A stretch of DNA of 10,938 bases from a virus. The notes beneath the pieces were generated by a model. It was not told the origin of the DNA, ran no database searches, and saw nothing but the letters and a program-made list of their open reading frames with translations. The stretch is taken from the UHGV virus genome UHGV-1796162, one strand, 5' to 3'. Below, piece by piece: positions 2,493-10,938 of this stretch. Within the stretch, counting starts at the first letter, position 1. Each line of letters begins with the position of its first letter. The position numbers and the translations under genes are program-made.

Positions 2493-2669
2493 TTACTTAT
2501 TAAACATTTTACCAGAACCACCACACATAGGGCAGCAACCTGCTCTTGTATAACCTTCCCCATTACAGAAGTCACATTTTTTGTGTTCTGCAAAGTACTT
2601 ACAAAGAAGGTAAACAAATACTGCTACACTACCAAGTGACAGTAAAATTTCTATCCAATATGCTTGCAT
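2493..2669 (-). CDS. Small (58 aa) protein with an N-terminal transmembrane helix and two CxxCxGxG (DnaJ-type zinc-finger) motifs; not in the supplied ORF track
   Basis: Manual translation of the minus strand: MQAYWIEILLSLGSVAVFVYLLCKYFAEHKKCDFCNGEGYTRAGCCPMCGGSGKMFNK. ATG at 2667..2669 preceded by GAGAGGTGAGTC (good RBS); stop TAA at 2493..2495. It fills the otherwise unexplained gap between ORF111 and rIIA and sits where T4 has the small gene rIIA.1. Confidence 0.5.
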   Translation of the reverse strand: MQAYWIEILLSLGSVAVFVYLLCKYFAEHKKCDFCNGEGYTRAGCCPMCGGSGKMFNK

Positions 2670-2986
2670 GACTCACCTCTCATATTCTTGTAAAGGATAA
2701 AGCTTCTGTCATGGACGATACTTGTAGACACTGCAAAGTTACTTTCAAGCATCTGTTTGTTTGGATTGTAGAAGCTTTCTTTAAACTCGTCAAGTGCAAA
2801 TTGGTGATGTTGTGGAAGACCTTTTACACAGACTTTTATTGTGATTGCTGCTGCAATCTTGCCAGTCAGTTCTTCTTTAGCTGCTACTAGAATTTTGCTA
2901 AGGAACTTTTTACCATCTTCAGGTTTCTTAATGTTCTCCCAACGTTCTTCTAAGACAATGTTGATATTCATCTCTTTGATTTTCAT
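2651..2986 (-). CDS. Hypothetical protein, 111 aa
   Basis: ORF track 2651..2986. ATG at 2984..2986 preceded by GGAGAAAACT (RBS, ~7-nt spacing), immediately after a terminator hairpin. No recognisable motif. Confidence 0.6.
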   Translation of the reverse strand: MKIKEMNINIVLEERWENIKKPEDGKKFLSKILVAAKEELTGKIAAAITIKVCVKGLPQHHQFALDEFKESFYNPNKQMLESNFAVSTSIVHDRSFILYKNMRGESCKHIG

Positions 2987-3000
2987 AGTTTTCTCCAGAA

Positions 3001-3025
3001 ATTAAAAAGGCTCCCGTAGGAGCCT
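3001..3025 (-). terminator. Rho-independent terminator downstream of the Nampt-like gene
   Basis: On the minus strand: stem GGCTCC-TACG-GGAGCC (plus 3009..3024) followed by TTTTTAATTT. Lies between the Nampt stop (3040) and the ORF111 start (2986). Confidence 0.6.
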
Positions 3026-3039
3026 CTTATCATATACTT

Positions 3040-4821
3040 TTAAAGCTGCTTGTCAATATTATTTCGAATATCACCAAGAGATGTGTAACCGTACTGCTCA
3101 GAGTCACTAAAGACTAAACGTAAAGCACAAGCTGGGTGGTCAAGTGCATCTGCAAAGCTCTGGAATCCATAGCCATCTACAGCTTTCAACTTATCACCAT
3201 CCCACATAGGTGCTACACCACCAAAAGCAGACTTCTTAACACCACTATCTGTTTTAGGGTCTTTTGCAAGCATAATCTCTTTACCACCAATGCTTGCAAG
3301 AGTTGCTTTAACAGCAAATGCAAAGGTGTCACGAGTCATGTACTGGTAAGTGTAAGAGCCTACGCCAAACACTACGTTAGAGCTTGCAAAACCCATTTCA
3401 TACAGACGCTTCAGGATTTCGTTTGCACGTTCCAGCGTGATAGAGTCACCATAGATAAGGCCGATATGCTCATCCAGTACCTTAAACCCTTTAGAGTTAA
3501 TAGTTCCCCCAAAGATGTTATACAGTGTCTTGATAGCTCCATCAATCTCCGCTACAGGACGTGTTACAACGTTTGCAGAACCAACCATATAAGCATTTTT
3601 CAACAGCACTGTATCAGCAACTTCAAAGTCTTCTCTGTCAACAACCATTTCGTAGCCTTCTGACAGTAGCCATCCAGCAATACCATAATTGATGTTTTCA
3701 AGCTTCATGTTCAGGACAGAGTTCAGCATTGTGTCACTTGCCTCTAGCTTGCTTAGGTGCTCGTAATAAGCCTTCTTAGCACACTCTAAGTGAATTGCTT
3801 TATAACCTGTGACAATATGTACAGGGTCTCCAGAGTCAGGGCGAATTACCAGTTTGCCATCACGTTCCATAATTTCTTTACGGAGTGCTGGTAAGATTTC
3901 TGACACAGTTCTCCAGAAGTTGTAAGTATCTGAAACAATACTTGCAATACCAGTTGGGTAAGTTTCTGTTAAGAAACGACGGAAGGTTTGTAACTCACCT
4001 TTAAAGCGTCTTTCTTCTTCAATCAGTTCATTACCACCTTCCCAAGCAATGTTTGCACACATTACAGAGTGTTCAGTGGCTGGTACAGAGCTACCAATAT
4101 CAGAAATTGGGTAAGACTGTCCATAGATGCGTTTAGCCGTGTATACAGCAGGAAAACTGTCAGTTCCTTTAAAGCTGGTTAAGTGACCTACAGCGTTAAA
4201 TGCGTCATCAGTAAAGCCGGACATACCACGCATAGCAAAGTCATGACACTGATAAGGTAAATGTAAGTCGTTGTCACAAGTAAGGTCAGCCCACTTCTTA
4301 CAGATGCGTTTATAGTGCAATGCAATAGTTGCAATGGTACAAGCTTTCCAAATCTCAGCAGAGAAAGCATCTTCCAGATACCCTGCTACCCAATGGAAAC
4401 CTGAAACAGTGTTCTGGAAGACAATCATTGGGACACGCATTGGAACAACTGTGCCTTCTTCTACAGCGTATACTTCGACTGGCAGATAACCTAAGTCGTG
4501 AAGTGCTTCCCAATGCTCTCGACCAATAGCATCTTTGCCCAGAACACCGTTCATGACTTCTAAGATTTCGTCAATTGCTTCTTTTTTGTCACGTTCAAAG
4601 AAAGTGGCGTTCCAATGGTCTATCAAGTAATCTTTAACAAAACGTTGAATACCAAAAGCCACTACACCGTCAATTGCCAAAGGGCTGTTAAACCATTTGT
4701 CACTACGTGGTGTCAGGTTCAACATAAGATATTGCGTAGCATCTGGATACTGATATATATGTGATGCCTTGTAAGCATCTGCGTTTAAACCTGCTGGCAC
4801 TGCATAAAGTGATTTAGTCAT
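3040..4821 (-). CDS. nadV: Nicotinamide phosphoribosyltransferase family protein (Nampt/NadV-like; alternatively a nicotinamide ADP-ribose transferase of the phage NAD+ reconstitution pathway), 593 aa from the ATG
   Basis: The track ORF starts at TTG (4839); I place the start at ATG 4819..4821 (MTKSLYAVPAGL...) preceded by TGAGAGAGATTAAAAAG. Family motifs recalled from human NAMPT: NADAYKASHIYQYP (vs ATDSYKVTHYKQYP), LVIRPDSGDP (vs LIIRPDSGNP), INSKGFKVLDEHIGLIYGDS (vs [20 protein letters not shown]). It is ~100 aa longer than canonical Nampt. Confidence 0.85.
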   Translation of the reverse strand: MTKSLYAVPAGLNADAYKASHIYQYPDATQYLMLNLTPRSDKWFNSPLAIDGVVAFGIQRFVKDYLIDHWNATFFERDKKEAIDEILEVMNGVLGKDAIGREHWEALHDLGYLPVEVYAVEEGTVVPMRVPMIVFQNTVSGFHWVAGYLEDAFSAEIWKACTIATIALHYKRICKKWADLTCDNDLHLPYQCHDFAMRGMSGFTDDAFNAVGHLTSFKGTDSFPAVYTAKRIYGQSYPISDIGSSVPATEHSVMCANIAWEGGNELIEEERRFKGELQTFRRFLTETYPTGIASIVSDTYNFWRTVSEILPALRKEIMERDGKLVIRPDSGDPVHIVTGYKAIHLECAKKAYYEHLSKLEASDTMLNSVLNMKLENINYGIAGWLLSEGYEMVVDREDFEVADTVLLKNAYMVGSANVVTRPVAEIDGAIKTLYNIFGGTINSKGFKVLDEHIGLIYGDSITLERANEILKRLYEMGFASSNVVFGVGSYTYQYMTRDTFAFAVKATLASIGGKEIMLAKDPKTDSGVKKSAFGGVAPMWDGDKLKAVDGYGFQSFADALDHPACALRLVFSDSEQYGYTSLGDIRNNIDKQL

Positions 4822-4842
4822 CTTTTTAATCTCTCTCAAAAT

Positions 4843-4858
4843 GGGGCTTAAAAGCCCC
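4843..4858 (-). other. GC-rich stem-loop (GGGGCT-TAAA-AGCCCC) between the Prs-like and Nampt-like genes
   Basis: 6-7-bp perfect stem read directly. On the minus strand it is followed by ATTTTGAGAGAG, i.e. only a short U-run, so it is a possible partial terminator or processing/stability hairpin. The stem sequence is nearly identical to the hairpin at 68..87. Confidence 0.45.
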
Positions 4859-4868
4859 CTATAAAGTT

Positions 4869-5750
4869 TTAATCAAGGTTTGCTACAGTAACTTGACCAT
4901 AATGTGTTAAGCCACGGTCTTTAGCTTCCCCTAAAGAGTTTGTAGTGTAAATGTGGTCAATACCATTGTCAAGTAAGTTTTCAACACCTTTAGAGAAAAT
5001 ACCATGAGTTACATAAAGTTCCACACGTTTTGCACCTGCTTCACGAAGATGTTTTGCTGCTTCTACGAAGGTTCGACCACCATCACAGATATCATCAAGA
5101 ATCATGACGGTTTTATCGGTCAAATCAACATCATCAAGGATTCGCATACCAGTAATTTCACCAGTCTTAAGGTTACGCACTTTAGACATTATGATATATG
5201 GTTTATCCACCTCTTTAGCGGCATCTTTAGTCTTCTTAGCTGCACCTGCATCTGGGGCTACTAAGAAATCAATGCGCGGGTCACTTGCAAAGTGTACTGC
5301 AATTTCCTTTTGAGGAATACTCTGGAAGCAGTTAAATAGGTTATCTGGTACATAACTGTGAGGGTCAACTGCACAGACTGCACCAAATCCCATTGCATTC
5401 ACCTGCTTAGCAAAAACCTTTAAAGCTGCTGCATCACCTTTAAACATGTGACGGTCATATCGTGCATTTGGTAAGTAGTAAAAAATGACAGTCTTTAAGG
5501 CATATTCATGAGGAACTAAATCATCAATTGCTTCTTTAGCAAGTGCCACAGCAAACAATGTGTCTTTATCATAACCTTTTACAATCATAATCACATTGTT
5601 GATGGATGATGCTGCGTGAGCAGTAAAGTCAACAAGCTCTTGTGAAAAGTGTCCACCAATCTCACCAGAAGGGAACTGGATGAGGTTAAACTCTTCTTCA
5701 TGAGACCCTTTTGTCGGTGAATGAATTATAACACGGATAGATGTTTTCAT
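4869..5750 (-). CDS. prs: Ribose-phosphate pyrophosphokinase (PRPP synthetase, Prs) family protein; alternatively an ADP-ribose pyrophosphokinase, 293 aa from the ATG
   Basis: The track ORF starts at TTG; I place the start at ATG 5748..5750 (MKTSIRVIIHSP...) preceded by TGAGAGTAAAACT. Type I PRTase ribose-phosphate binding loop VMILDDICDGGRTF (cf. Prs ...DD.IDTGGT) and a DPHS segment resembling the Prs DLHA region. Size matches Prs (~300 aa). Confidence 0.8.
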   Translation of the reverse strand: MKTSIRVIIHSPTKGSHEEEFNLIQFPSGEIGGHFSQELVDFTAHAASSINNVIMIVKGYDKDTLFAVALAKEAIDDLVPHEYALKTVIFYYLPNARYDRHMFKGDAAALKVFAKQVNAMGFGAVCAVDPHSYVPDNLFNCFQSIPQKEIAVHFASDPRIDFLVAPDAGAAKKTKDAAKEVDKPYIIMSKVRNLKTGEITGMRILDDVDLTDKTVMILDDICDGGRTFVEAAKHLREAGAKRVELYVTHGIFSKGVENLLDNGIDHIYTTNSLGEAKDRGLTHYGQVTVANLD

Positions 5751-5760
5751 AGTTTTACTC

Positions 5761-6039
5761 TCAATCAAAAGTTACGAATGTCACAGCCATAGCTGTTTTG
5801 CATTTTTGTGGATTCACAATGTGATAGATTACTGAACAGTTACCTGTGCTATCTGGTACTGGTTTTGTCCAAGTGCGTTCAACATTTGGTTCACCTAGTT
5901 CTTTGTAGAATCCGTTTGTGTGACGGTCAATCATCTCAAGAGCTAATGGGTCTGGTATATGGCCACGAATCATATACATCTCACAACCATTTCCAGCATC
6001 ACTTATTAGGTCTTTTATTTCCCAATCTGCTTTAGCCAT
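5761..6039 (-). CDS. Hypothetical protein, 92 aa
   Basis: ORF track 5761..6039. Its ATG (6037..6039) overlaps the stop of ORF171, and its TGA stop is embedded in the RBS-like TGAGAGT of the Prs-like gene, so it looks translationally coupled within the operon. No motif recognised. Confidence 0.55.
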   Translation of the reverse strand: MAKADWEIKDLISDAGNGCEMYMIRGHIPDPLALEMIDRHTNGFYKELGEPNVERTWTKPVPDSTGNCSVIYHIVNPQKCKTAMAVTFVTFD

Positions 6040-6547
6040 TGTAAGTTGCCCTATAAACTGTCTCGAACTTCAACAGGAGAGATATTGCCAAATCTGTATA
6101 GCTGTTGTCAAGCACATCTGGCATATTGTTTTTGATATATTTCTCTTGCTCTTCATAGGTCATCTTAGAGGTGCTTAAAAGTCTATCTCCTTGCTTCTGA
6201 TTATCAGCTTTAGTCTGGATAAACCAGTTTGCACAGTGATGTTCACCACCTTTTGTAACAGGCTTGTGGTGGCCTAATGTGAAGGACTGGTTACCTGTGT
6301 ATCTGCAAAGCTTATTGAGTACTGTAATGGTGTTCTTCACAACAAAACATTCATACAGGTTATCTATGGTGTAATGTGGGTAATAGTGGAATAGTGCTCT
6401 TTCACGAGTACTATCACGATTCCAGAGAATCATGTGATTAGAGTTAGAAGGGTCATATTGGTGGGAGTCAATGAACTCTTGACGTTCCTCAAAGCTGAGC
6501 CTTAACACTGACATTGCAGCCGAACGTTTCAGGTTTGACAGGTACAT
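6032..6547 (-). CDS. Hypothetical protein, 171 aa (His-rich segment LGHHKPVTKGGEHHCANWF)
   Basis: ORF track 6032..6547. ATG at 6545..6547 preceded by GGAGATAAT, directly after the terminator hairpin at 6566..6586. It is the first gene of the apparent operon ending with the Nampt-like gene. Confidence 0.6.
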   Translation of the reverse strand: MYLSNLKRSAAMSVLRLSFEERQEFIDSHQYDPSNSNHMILWNRDSTRERALFHYYPHYTIDNLYECFVVKNTITVLNKLCRYTGNQSFTLGHHKPVTKGGEHHCANWFIQTKADNQKQGDRLLSTSKMTYEEQEKYIKNNMPDVLDNSYTDLAISLLLKFETVYRATYNG

Positions 6548-8726: not shown

Positions 8727-9674
8727 TTACATAGAAATCCTATCCTTAATTTCTGCCATCTTAGCGTCATTCATTCGAGACTGGCCTTTAATTTTCGTGA
8801 ATGACAAGTACCCACACACCCTGTTAATCACAGAGATATCATGTGAATGGCAAACCTCACATTCTTCAACATCAGCCTTTGGTCTGTTACCACAATGTTC
8901 ACAGATTGCTAAGTCAAAGTTAAGTCCCTGATAGAAACCTTTCAACATACCTCTCGTAATACAACTTTTAAGTGCTGGCAAGTTTTCTGGGTTAGCTACC
9001 CTTACATACTGGATTCTACCACCTCTACAGATATGGAAGAAGGGTTCTTCTAAGTCCTGCTTCTCAAATGGTGTAATGTCTGCTGCAACATTCATATGGA
9101 AACTGTTTGTAAAGTATTCCTTATCAGAAACACCTTTGATAACACCAAACATGTCTCTGAACTGTTTTAACTGAGTTCCACAAAGTGATTCTGCTGGAGT
9201 ACCATAGACAGCATATAAGAATCCATCTTCATTTTTAAACTCTTCAGTTTTCATGTTAATGTATGCCAGAACATCGTATGTAAAACTACAGCTTCCAACT
9301 TCATGAAGCCGTTTACCTTCAGCAAGAACAGATAGCTCATCAAGCGCAGTAACCCCAAAAGAAGCTGTGAAGGACTTCACAATATCCCAACCAACCCTGT
9401 CAGTAGGATTCTTAGTTCCTTTATACAGACCACCTTGTGTAAATGCAAGAGGGTTAGAACTTGCTGGCATATTAGCAATCATTTCGTAGCGTTTCTTGTG
9501 GAAGCTGCGAATTATTTCTAGGTACTTATCAAGCTCTTTCCAGAAATCTAAACCATTCTCTTTAGAATACTGGTAAATCATTGGTAAGTTCAAAGATACA
9601 GCACCAATGTTAGCACGACCTACATAAAACTCTTCACCATATTCGTTATGGTATGGTGATAAAAATGCTCTACA
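8727..9674 (-). CDS. nrdD: Anaerobic ribonucleoside-triphosphate reductase NrdD, exon 2 (C-terminal ~315 aa including the glycyl-radical and zinc-ribbon region)
   Basis: C-terminus carries CEHCGNRP...CEVCHSHD (Zn ribbon) and RVCGYLSF (glycyl-radical motif). The reading frame is open upstream of the track start (9593) to an in-frame TAG at 9696..9698 and contains CRAFLSPY. The exon 2 start at 9674 is inferred from the intron 3' end (...CCTGAACAACAAG|TGT) and from the conserved junction SPMG|CRAFL. Confidence 0.8.
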   Translation of the reverse strand, partial: CRAFLSPYHNEYGEEFYVGRANIGAVSLNLPMIYQYSKENGLDFWKELDKYLEIIRSFHKKRYEMIANMPASSNPLAFTQGGLYKGTKNPTDRVGWDIVKSFTASFGVTALDELSVLAEGKRLHEVGSCSFTYDVLAYINMKTEEFKNEDGFLYAVYGTPAESLCGTQLKQFRDMFGVIKGVSDKEYFTNSFHMNVAADITPFEKQDLEEPFFHICRGGRIQYVRVANPENLPALKSCITRGMLKGFYQGLNFDLAICEHCGNRPKADVEECEVCHSHDISVINRVCGYLSFTKIKGQSRMNDAKMAEIKDRISM

Positions 9675-10416
9675 CTTGTTGTTCAGGTAAGTTCGCTAAG
9701 CTTACCCCGCTTTATTCAAGCTGCTTACTGTCGCCAGTAAGTCCAGACTATATCTTCTACTTATTTCTAAGTAGCGTACCATTTCGAGTCGCTTGACCCT
9801 ACACCGCTACATTCATCACGGTTAGTCGTTCGGCATTTAGATGTATTCAAACTCATATTCGAAGTTATTATGCTCTTTTACACCCTTCAATATTGAAGAG
9901 ATGGTCTTGCGATTGTGTCCAAGTATATTGGATAACTCTCGTATTGACTTAGTAACAATAACTTCCTTTGTCACTTTGTGTGTGGCTTTCACGGCATATG
10001 AACGCTTGTGGAACTTGTAACATCCGTTCTCATAACCCTCTTTAGCATTCTCAGAATGAGTACCCCATTCTAAGTTAGATGCGTGGTTATTTAGTTTGTT
10101 ATCGTCCTTATGTTTTACAATTGGAAGATTATTCGGGTTAGGTACATATTTCTCAGCAACTAACCTGTGGACATACATGTCACGATTCTTCTTACCGTAA
10201 AACCTCACTTTCATATACCCAGTGTTGGATTTCCACTGCGTAAGCTCTACACCATTTTCCCTAAAGACTTTTCCATCTTCAGTGACGTGATAGTTTGGCA
10301 TGTAAGACTCCTATGTTGTATAGTTTCTTACATCGTACATCATTTAGCACAGGATTGTCTACATCTGTAGAGTTTCCCTGTTTAGGCACGTTTTAGATGA
10401 GCTATAGAGCTTGTTA
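9675..10416 (-). mobile_element. Group I self-splicing intron (T4 td/nrdD-like, ~742 nt) interrupting nrdD and carrying a homing-endonuclease ORF
   Basis: Exon 1 ends ...ATGGGT followed by an immediate in-frame TAA (cf. T4 td 5' splice site ...GGGU|UAAUUGAGG). Conserved core-like elements on the minus strand: CCTAAACAGGGAAACTCTACAGATGTAGACAATCCTGTGCTAAAT at the 5' side; GGGTCAAGCGACTCGAAA, AGAAGATATAGTCTGG and GGGGTAAGCTTAGCGAACTTACCTGAACAACAAG at the 3' side. These closely resemble the T4 td intron as I recall it. Exact boundaries are +/- a few nt. Confidence 0.75.
9837..10301 (-). CDS. HNH family homing endonuclease (intron-encoded), 154 aa
   Basis: ORF track 9837..10301. HNH-type motif YVHRLVAEKYVPNPNNLPIVKHKDDNKLNNHASNLEWGTHSEN and a C-terminal helix-turn-helix-like IRELSNILGHNRKTISSILKG. 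ATG preceded by ATAGGAGTCTTAC. It lies wholly inside the intron. Confidence 0.8.
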   Translation of the reverse strand: MPNYHVTEDGKVFRENGVELTQWKSNTGYMKVRFYGKKNRDMYVHRLVAEKYVPNPNNLPIVKHKDDNKLNNHASNLEWGTHSENAKEGYENGCYKFHKRSYAVKATHKVTKEVIVTKSIRELSNILGHNRKTISSILKGVKEHNNFEYEFEYI

Positions 10417-10938
10417 ACCCATCGGTGAAATTACCTTGCCAGAACGCTCAAAAGCTTCTGCTACAGCACCATGACCAGATACACTTAAGAAATCTGGATA
10501 CATTGCTTTAGAGCAGCACTCAATAGCTTTACTGTACAGGTGGCCTTGACAGATATTCTCATTATGTCTCTTCTGGTCATAAATATAAACCAGTTTAGGG
10601 AATACAACAGGCTTCTTGCTCTTACCTTGTCCATTCATACGAACATCTAGGAGAGTACTTGCAATTATATATTGCAGTCGGTTATCTTCATTGGACATAT
10701 CTGAGTCAAGTAACCCGAATGTCAAAGTTGTGAATGCAAAATCCCCACGACTACAAGGTACAGTATTTAGTTTCATTTCAAGTGACTGGAAACCTTGAGT
10801 TAGCTCAATCTGTAGCTGCTCCATGACATAATTGTGGTAATGCTCTTTAGGAATACCATAAGATGCTGCTTTCTCAGCATGATAGCGTAGAGACTTCTTA
10901 GCATACGGTACAAGTACCTTATCAATCTCTGCTAAAGT
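10417..10938 (-). CDS. nrdD: Anaerobic ribonucleoside-triphosphate reductase NrdD, exon 1 (partial; the 5' end lies beyond the right edge of the window)
   Basis: The frame of track ORF 10414..10824 stays open, with no stop, up to position 10938 (TLAEIDKVLVPYAKKSLRYHAEKAASYGIPKEHYHNYVMEQ...). It ends ...KVISPMG immediately before the intron 5' splice site. Joining to exon 2 gives ...SPMGCRAFLSPY..., matching the conserved class III RNR active-site Cys region as I recall it. Confidence 0.8.

Follow-up and report, generated by a model that had tools for sequence, protein, structure and literature searches.

NARP1, a two-enzyme route to nicotinamide adenine dinucleotide (NAD+), was discovered in a two-gene operon of the phage Bas63. 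As described in the passages of the NARP1 preprint drawn on here, the first enzyme, Adps, converts ADP-ribose and ATP to ADP-ribose pyrophosphate (ADPR-PP); the second, Namat, joins ADPR-PP to nicotinamide to give NAD+; deletion of the operon sensitised Bas63 to the defence system SIR2-HerA, and in vivo the operon countered the depletion of NAD+ by SIR2-HerA, with ADPR-PP being detected (bioRxiv 10.1101/2024.02.11.579819). The same passages report that the anti-defence effect was independent of pncC and nadR, host genes for the salvage of nicotinamide mononucleotide (NMN) to NAD+, that ADPR-cyclic-phosphate was detected and possibly derives from ADPR-PP, and that Bas63 Adps purified poorly, the published in-vitro work having used the enzymes of SpβL1 (bioRxiv 10.1101/2024.02.11.579819). 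The SpβL1 Namat, an enzyme of 491 amino acids (aa), preferred ADPR-PP over phosphoribosyl pyrophosphate (PRPP) in vitro and made NAD+ (bioRxiv 10.1101/2024.02.11.579819; PMC12774641). Crystal structures credit this preference to a clamp composed of the β1-β2 loop (selectivity-clamp loop, SCL) and helix α18 (selectivity-clamp helix, SCH), and a pull-down with SpβL1 Adps and Namat revealed no stable complex (PMC12774641). As a counter-defence of phages NARP1 is widespread; about 4.3% of sequenced phages encode it, a figure cited in PMC13586617. Here we examine the Namat gene of a virus genome (UHGV-1796162), carried on a stretch of 10,938 nucleotides (the 10.9-kb window, by which the whole of that stretch is meant), and in particular a segment of about 90 aa that sets its product apart from canonical members of the Nampt family.

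The gene itself is already known, since its product is 97% identical to the Namat of Bas63 (Escherichia phage JohannRWettstein; P0011), the prototype of NARP1. That protein, encoded by gene 80 in the NARP1 operon, has the same length (593 aa), the same insert apart from about four substitutions, and the same partner, Adps. The insert is an undescribed accessory domain on this known enzyme. The four-way alignment in Fig. 4A of PMC12774641 must show it. No description of it was found in the main text or supplement of that paper, nor in PMC13586617, where the word 'insertion' is absent; it is not mentioned in the passages of the NARP1 preprint drawn on here, outside which 'insertion' is used once (bioRxiv 10.1101/2024.02.11.579819), and a wider literature search on the insert returned nothing relevant. 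NARP1 was discovered in an E. coli phage whose Namat bears the insert, whereas the biochemistry and the crystal structures come from the insert-less enzyme of a Bacillus phage. An extra ordered domain beside the catalytic strand bears on how far the structural conclusions from SpβL1 transfer to phages of E. coli and Salmonella, and it affects the design of constructs, given the poor purification of Bas63 Adps and the move of in-vitro work to the SpβL1 enzymes.

Extent and boundaries of the insertion

The coding sequence of the window Namat (nicotinamide ADP-ribose transferase, Nampt family) occupies positions 3040..4821 on the minus strand, with its ATG at 4821 and a product of 593 aa. An alternative TTG start at 4839 would give 599 aa; it is disfavoured because every homologue begins MTKSL. 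An initial annotation of this DNA, which relied on a by-eye alignment to human NAMPT, had proposed that the protein carries a single insertion of about 90 aa relative to canonical Nampt and that this explains most of its roughly 100 aa of extra length. The insertion is real. When aligned by MAFFT with human NAMPT (the sequence used is identical to PDB 2gvg_A over 1-491), the window protein has an uninterrupted run of 89 aa without counterpart at residues 340-428 (positions 3538..3804, minus strand; phmmer and MAFFT). The other runs found only in the query were of 14 aa (260-273), 7 aa (69-75) and 6 aa (558-563), and 89 of the 102 extra residues fall in the one block. Between the RPDSGDP motif and the INSKG motif, 18 aa were counted in NAMPT and 107 aa in the window protein, in place of the 18 and 106 first estimated. 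Alignment with NadV, human NAMPT and phage Namat further indicated that ordinary NadV enzymes lack the extra residues and that the difference in length is not spread over many loops, in keeping with the proposal of an inserted subdomain; the block also folds alone when modelled.

A search of PDB sequences with phmmer gave the same picture, the match to every relative being split in two. For the SpβL1 Namat (9w5w), residues 5-350 of the query aligned to chain residues 8-334 and query residues 428-555 to 335-462; for the NadV of Haemophilus ducreyi (9ke8), 7-350 aligned to 13-334 and 425-589 to 332-488. The size of the insertion depends on the relative to which it is compared. SpβL1 Namat has an 11-residue loop, DPEAKDELVRK, at the insert site, and the loop of the window protein is 77 aa longer (residues 340-416; positions 3574-3804, minus strand), with a few residues of latitude in where the gap is placed. 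Relative to the closest short homologues from bacteria, of which P0066 is the nearest, the excess is 72 aa. In the initial annotation the insertion had been put at 3517-3789, or residues 345-435, which captured its size and missed its boundaries by some 5-7 residues: its first residue is at about Y340 rather than L345, and the end that had been counted into it, IDGAIKTLYNIFGG (residues 426-439; positions 3505..3546, minus strand), is a conserved barrel helix common to all relatives, at which the chain rejoins the core.

A second, smaller clade-specific insertion, WEGGNELIEEERRF (residues 260-273; positions 4003..4044, minus strand), forms a loop and helix after the strand that bears the catalytic His251. 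It is missing from the short bacterial homologues and from human NAMPT, as well as from SpβL1 Namat, to which the insertion measures 14-15 aa (260-274), and it is variable among the long forms. In three dimensions it probably neighbours the large insert.

Predicted structure and search for relatives

A full-length AlphaFold2 model, built from an alignment of 44 sequences, had a mean predicted local distance difference test score (pLDDT) of 92.8 and a predicted template modelling score (pTM) of 0.91, with pLDDT values of 94-97 in the insert. The folded core of the insert in this model, residues 342-422 (positions 3556..3798, minus strand), follows the pattern strand, three helices, β-hairpin, helix, strand (strand 342-344; helices 345-358, 363-370 and 379-387; strands 392-395 and 401-406; helix 407-413; strand 418-422). 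When the insert was modelled alone, from 26 aligned inserts, the same elements were recovered (pLDDT 85.7, pTM 0.75). The insert is predicted by these models to be an autonomous mini-domain and not a disordered loop, and the pTM of the whole model suggests that the module is packed rigidly against the core. Across the insert alignment the best-conserved motif was GYE(M/L)VVDxEDFxxADTxxL, at residues 390-407.

No known domain family could be assigned to the insert by sequence or by structure: the only Pfam match was sub-threshold, and the best hit in a Foldseek search of the insert against predicted viral structures had an E-value of 0.36. An insert-only phmmer search of 1.84 billion representative proteins returned a C-terminal Namat fragment (P0121) and a tandem-repeat protein of 2223 aa, but it also missed divergent insert-bearing Namats, so its power was limited. 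The tandem-repeat protein was rejected as a spurious relative, its score being the sum of 16 identical weak matches. A search of a 5.8-billion-protein set with a profile of the insert alignment, in which 220 candidates were scored, yielded one 54-aa fragment and missed known positives.

Catalytic core and donor specificity

The core into which the insert is set is that of a Namat. Both Pfam families recognised in the protein, NAPRTase (PF04095, E 6.9e-35) and NAMPT_N (PF18127, E 9.3e-06), passed curated cut-offs, and Foldseek matched the model to structures of NAMPT and Namat with E-values down to 3e-53 and target-normalised template modelling (TM) scores of 0.89-0.95. Placed on the SpβL1 Namat crystal structure, the full model scored a TM of 0.95 normalised to the target and 0.78 normalised to the query, as expected for a conserved core with about 100 extra residues. 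Residues Y17, F195, R198, D221, H251, R327, D329, G458 and D459 were invariant in the 44-sequence alignment and align with their SpβL1 and human counterparts, namely the Tyr/Phe pair that stacks on nicotinamide, the catalytic His, the Arg and Asp of RPDSG, and the GD(G/S) strand. The catalytic motif RPDSGDP (positions 3823..3843, minus strand), whose R327 and D329 correspond to R306/D308 in SpβL1 and R311/D313 in the human enzyme, lies on the barrel strand that immediately precedes the insert.

For each SpβL1 residue listed as contacting NAD (PMC12774641), the window protein has a counterpart outside the insert. D15, Y17, F195, R198, D221, A248, H251, R327, D329, G458, D459, G488, S489, T496, R497 and D498 are conserved; A196 for Ser190 and S460 for Ala362 are conservative swaps; other changes occur only at clamp positions, where adenine stacking would involve Y490 and Y494 for Phe392 and Tyr396, and K42-W43 for Arg40. 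The SCH, GSYTYQYMTRD (residues 488-498; positions 3328..3360, minus strand), fits the Namat consensus GSXΦXΦXΦTRD (PMC12774641). In the SCL, S40-D41-K42-W43 (positions 4693..4704, minus strand), the third residue is Lys and the fourth aromatic, as in Bas63 Namat (PMC12774641), which agrees with the Namat loop, characterised by a third residue that is Arg, Lys or Tyr and by a stacking residue. An adjoining Adps (Prs-like) gene, a further mark of a Namat, is also present. On sequence grounds the window protein and the prototype Namat of Bas63 are orthologues, and every sequence-level feature of Namats that was tested was found in the window protein.

Comparison with characterised relatives places the protein in the same way. 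With SpβL1 Namat (9w5w, 9w5x) it shares the fold, about 37-39% identity, the catalytic residues, the SCH signature and the pathway. Human NAMPT (2gvg) and the NadV/Nampt enzymes of Haemophilus ducreyi (9ke8) and Xanthomonas (7yqo) have in common with it the type II phosphoribosyltransferase fold, the RPDSG and GD(G/S) motifs and the catalytic His, and the head-to-tail dimer architecture is that of the solved relatives; human NAMPT and the NadV/Nampt enzymes differ in converting PRPP to NMN and in lacking both the aromatic SCH signature and the insert.

It had been suggested in the initial annotation that the inserted subdomain alters specificity so as to accommodate a donor derived from ADP-ribose. 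This idea is not supported: SpβL1 Namat, which has no insert, already prefers ADPR-PP, and in the window protein the SCL and SCH are retained elsewhere in the chain. The new donor specificity of the family therefore cannot come from the insert. As the SpβL1 enzyme shows, Namat chemistry does not require the insert, and the window Namat would be expected to work like the characterised one, with ADPR-PP selected by the SCL/SCH clamp.

Distribution, origin and selection

The insert was found by tblastn in 254 phage records, Felix O1 among them, and always within a gene annotated as nadV or nicotinamide phosphoribosyltransferase. Of the 120 best homologues, the ones with identities down to about 46% were long (582-610 aa, two partial sequences excepted), with a loop of 87-113 aa between the RPDSGDP and INSKG motifs that carries the conserved core motif of the insert; they include proteins of Yersinia, Pectobacterium and Salmonella phages. 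The next-best homologues, from Klebsiella, Cronobacter and other enterobacteria, were of about 495 aa and had a loop of 35 aa. In a neighbour-joining tree based on core columns only, the insert-bearing sequences formed one bipartition in 100 of 100 bootstraps; as they are a single clade on columns outside the insert, the tree indicates that the insert arose once. Within that clade it has been kept throughout, without loss.

The ratio of non-synonymous to synonymous substitution rates (dN/dS) within Felixounavirus was 0.03-0.13 for the insert and 0.03-0.10 for the core, which means that the insert is translated and constrained. With no stop codons, a dN/dS well below 1 and a confident predicted structure, the block is translated protein. 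Its sequence nevertheless diverges much faster than the core, in the manner of a protein surface: identity to the Mooglevirus-type proteins (P0029, P0030, P0033) was 40-46% in the insert versus 86-90% in the core, and to more distant homologues 14-34% versus 48-70%. Clade-specific core residues were considered as a possible docking surface for the insert, and only eight such core positions (nine with S4 in the N-terminal extension) were found, without obvious clustering.

Between some lineages of Felixounavirus (L003 and L004 were compared), the synonymous substitution rate (dS) was 0.64-0.89 in the insert codons versus 0.2-0.3 elsewhere in the gene. This divergent block, at codons ~341-460 (window ~3440-3800), suggests a recombination tract or mosaicism centred on the insert.

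Other insertions at the same loop

The loop in question, which runs from RPDSGDP-VxIxCG to the KGxIExLWxIFGG helix, holds other insertions in several further Namats: 110 aa in P0094 and P0096, 78 aa in P0112, 63 aa in P0087 and 51 aa in P0086. All lie outside the insert-bearing clade in the core-column tree. P0094, P0096, P0112 and P0087 are phage Namats; homology of their inserts to the Felix-O1-type insert was not detected, P0094 being the one tested, with an hhalign probability of 2% against the profile of the Felix-O1-type insert. On phage-like contigs, a Prs-like gene immediately precedes P0094 (L006, 4001-5752), and Prs-like genes lie close to P0112. The occurrence of unrelated insertions at one site implies that the loop tolerates them, and a loop tolerant of large insertions would be useful in protein engineering. 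P0094 and P0096 share a homologous 110-aa insert and yet do not pair in the core-only neighbour-joining tree, a discord that reflects either noise in the tree or transfer of the insert by recombination.

A different kind of element was observed in the relative P0064 (843 aa; L008, 1512-4043), encoded after a Prs-like gene. Its catalytic RPD|SG, ten residues upstream of the insert site, is interrupted by an intein-like element of about 321 aa; the element begins CYDDKTEILTEKGW, ends VVISGN|SGTP and contains the LAGLIDADG-like 'LNIAIQADG'. The junction residues are C...GN|S at RPD|SG, and no Pfam intein domain was detected in it.

Proposed role of the insert

We consider it probable that the insert, about 80 residues long and self-folding, is an accessory subdomain specific to its lineage that forms a peripheral, non-catalytic surface module and serves as a contact surface or a buttress. 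The proposed sequence of events is as follows: the ancestor of the Felix-O1-like (Ounavirinae-type) Namats would have gained the module once, as a graft into the insertion-tolerant loop that links the RPDSGDP barrel strand to the following barrel helix, and the module would then have been kept as a folded surface module by purifying selection while its sequence drifted fast. The Nampt-type core would join nicotinamide to the ADPR-PP supplied by the neighbouring Adps, with the SCL/SCH clamp picking the adenine-bearing donor. The insert would act at the periphery, either in protein-protein contact (by self-association, or by transiently docking the Adps hexamer) or as a stabilising buttress on the barrel rim. 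The insertion point, we infer, lies on the catalytic face of the barrel, at its rim, near the 260-273 insertion, because it follows the R327/D329 strand, which adjoins both the His251 strand and the G458-D459-S460 strand that contacts the AMP phosphate; the order of barrel strands in the SpβL1 structure is β6-β12-β11-β8-β7 (PMC12774641). The in-vivo function of an enzyme with this insert is attested by Bas63, whose Namat, 97% identical, carries the same insert and whose operon, according to the cited passages, protects against SIR2-HerA, its deletion being sensitising (bioRxiv 10.1101/2024.02.11.579819).

Four points weigh against an insert that is purely a peripheral contact surface or buttress. 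Its placement on the rim was derived only from barrel topology and the strand order in PMC12774641, and any role in binding is one that we infer. Purifying selection shows that the fold matters and not what purpose it has. Published in-vitro data come entirely from the SpβL1 enzymes, and the insert may have a kinetic or regulatory effect.

The strongest of the alternatives, though on balance an unlikely one, is that the insert is specifically an Adps-docking module, binding the Adps hexamer so that the labile ADPR-PP is handed straight to Namat; an interaction with the Prs-like partner had been the second suggestion of the initial annotation. The two genes are adjacent and apparently form one transcription unit, and such channelling would be of help given that ADPR-cyclic-phosphate possibly forms from ADPR-PP, as the cited passages of the preprint have it (bioRxiv 10.1101/2024.02.11.579819). 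Both Adps and Namat are matched by a single PHROG family profile, phrog_12872, a hint that fused forms exist. Inserts carry a consistently acidic net charge, -2 to -13, but the whole protein is acidic too, and the charge is not specific to the insert. The SpβL1 pair, moreover, works well in vitro without an insert and forms no stable complex (PMC12774641), although that pull-down, the one relevant experiment found, speaks only for the insert-less form; short Namats are found in most NARP1 operons. Between Felixounavirus and Mooglevirus the insert is about 46% identical and Adps 78.5%, without a matching hypervariable patch. The N-terminal half of Adps is somewhat more variable in that comparison, and nothing in it parallels the divergence of the insert.

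A broader form of this idea, to which we give a similarly small chance, is that the mini-domain is a previously unseen fold endowing Felix-O1-type Namats with an extra function that SpβL1-type enzymes lack, either recruitment of the Adps hexamer with channelling or the binding of a host or immune signal that switches on or protects the rebuilding of NAD+. Were that the case, the repeated independent insertions in other phage Namats would represent parallel solutions to the same need. The insert in any event raises the question of physical cooperation between the two NARP1 enzymes in therapeutic-phage lineages. Its discovery would be of more interest if the module mediated an Adps-Namat complex or a regulatory input, which we doubt, and would be a minor detail of annotation if the domain were only structural decoration.

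Slightly less likely than docking is an active-site lid or regulatory element that covers or gates the pocket and thereby tunes kinetics or donor selectivity, or senses a ligand. The location of the insert would suit such a role, in the strand-to-helix loop right after R327/D329, and topology puts the insertion point on the catalytic face, one strand from G458-D459-S460, which in SpβL1 contacts the AMP phosphate (PMC12774641). We give slightly less credence again to a neutral passenger, a foreign or de novo segment with no function of its own that settled in a tolerant loop and is kept since its loss would destabilise the protein. The several unrelated insertions in the same loop, the far faster evolution of the insert relative to the core and the failure to find relatives of known function are all what would be expected of such a segment. 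A dN/dS of about 0.1 and a predicted pattern of secondary structure that is conserved down to about 20% identity are less easily reconciled with it, as is retention of the insert through the whole clade, although a constraint on folding alone would look alike.

That the insert is an intein, intron or other mobile element within the gene, as the intein-like element ten residues upstream in P0064 and the HNH endonuclease open reading frame (ORF) that splits nrdD elsewhere in the window might bring to mind, is so improbable that we reject it: the insert lacks both an initial Cys, Ser or Thr and a terminal HN with its nucleophile, its length of about 80 aa falls short of an intein, it has no structural match to a HINT fold, it is in frame and under purifying selection at the protein level, and AlphaFold2 predicts it to be an integral part of the mature fold.

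Phage and gene neighbourhood

Nucleotide matches identify the source phage of the window as Felix-O1-like and the Namat gene as that of a Felixounavirus. Positions 2500-6100 were 96% identical in DNA sequence to Escherichia phage allfine, and 260 phage records were matched, nearly all of them from phages of Escherichia, Salmonella, Shigella and Citrobacter; where the taxonomy of matched records was checked (Mushroom, wV8, BPS17L1, ESh20), it was Ounavirinae. Every long ORF of the window is on the minus strand. rIIA occupies 98-2464, and an ORF of 111 aa is listed between it and the Nampt-family ORF. The coding sequence of Adps (Prs-like ADP-ribose pyrophosphokinase, 293 aa) lies at 4869..5750, directly upstream of Namat on the same strand; several small ORFs, nrdG and an interrupted nrdD complete the minus-strand gene content.

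Directly 3' of the Namat stop codon, a consensus scan alone picked out a terminator-like hairpin and T-run (3005-3028, minus strand), which is likely to mark the end of the Adps-Namat transcription unit. A GC-rich hairpin, GGGGCTTTTAAGCCCC, was also observed at 4844-4859 (minus strand), inside the 47 nt that separate the stop codon of Adps from the ATG of Namat. The profile phrog_12872, which has 547 positions and is named nicotinamide phosphoribosyl transferase, aligned with both proteins, Adps residues 66-232 to profile positions 53-224 and Namat residues 243-587 to positions 236-534. This double match suggests that fused Adps-Namat proteins exist in some phages.

Small ORFs around the NARP1 operon at 2651-2986, 5761-6039 and 6032-6547 (minus strand) belong to phrog_4262, phrog_4726 and phrog_3500, to which PHROG assigns no function; all three are kept in Mooglevirus, at 59-79% identity. 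Accessory genes are reported within other NARP1 loci (RyDEP, bioRxiv 10.64898/2026.05.28.727677), and by analogy these flanking ORFs may deserve attention. Farther along the window, nrdD (anaerobic ribonucleotide reductase) is in two pieces within 8727-10824 on the minus strand: the ORF at 10414-10824 corresponds to positions 133-251 of the NRDD profile and that at 8727-9593 to positions 284-560. An HNH_3 endonuclease ORF at 9837-10301 separates the two, an interruption that looks like one of the homing-endonuclease or intron type.

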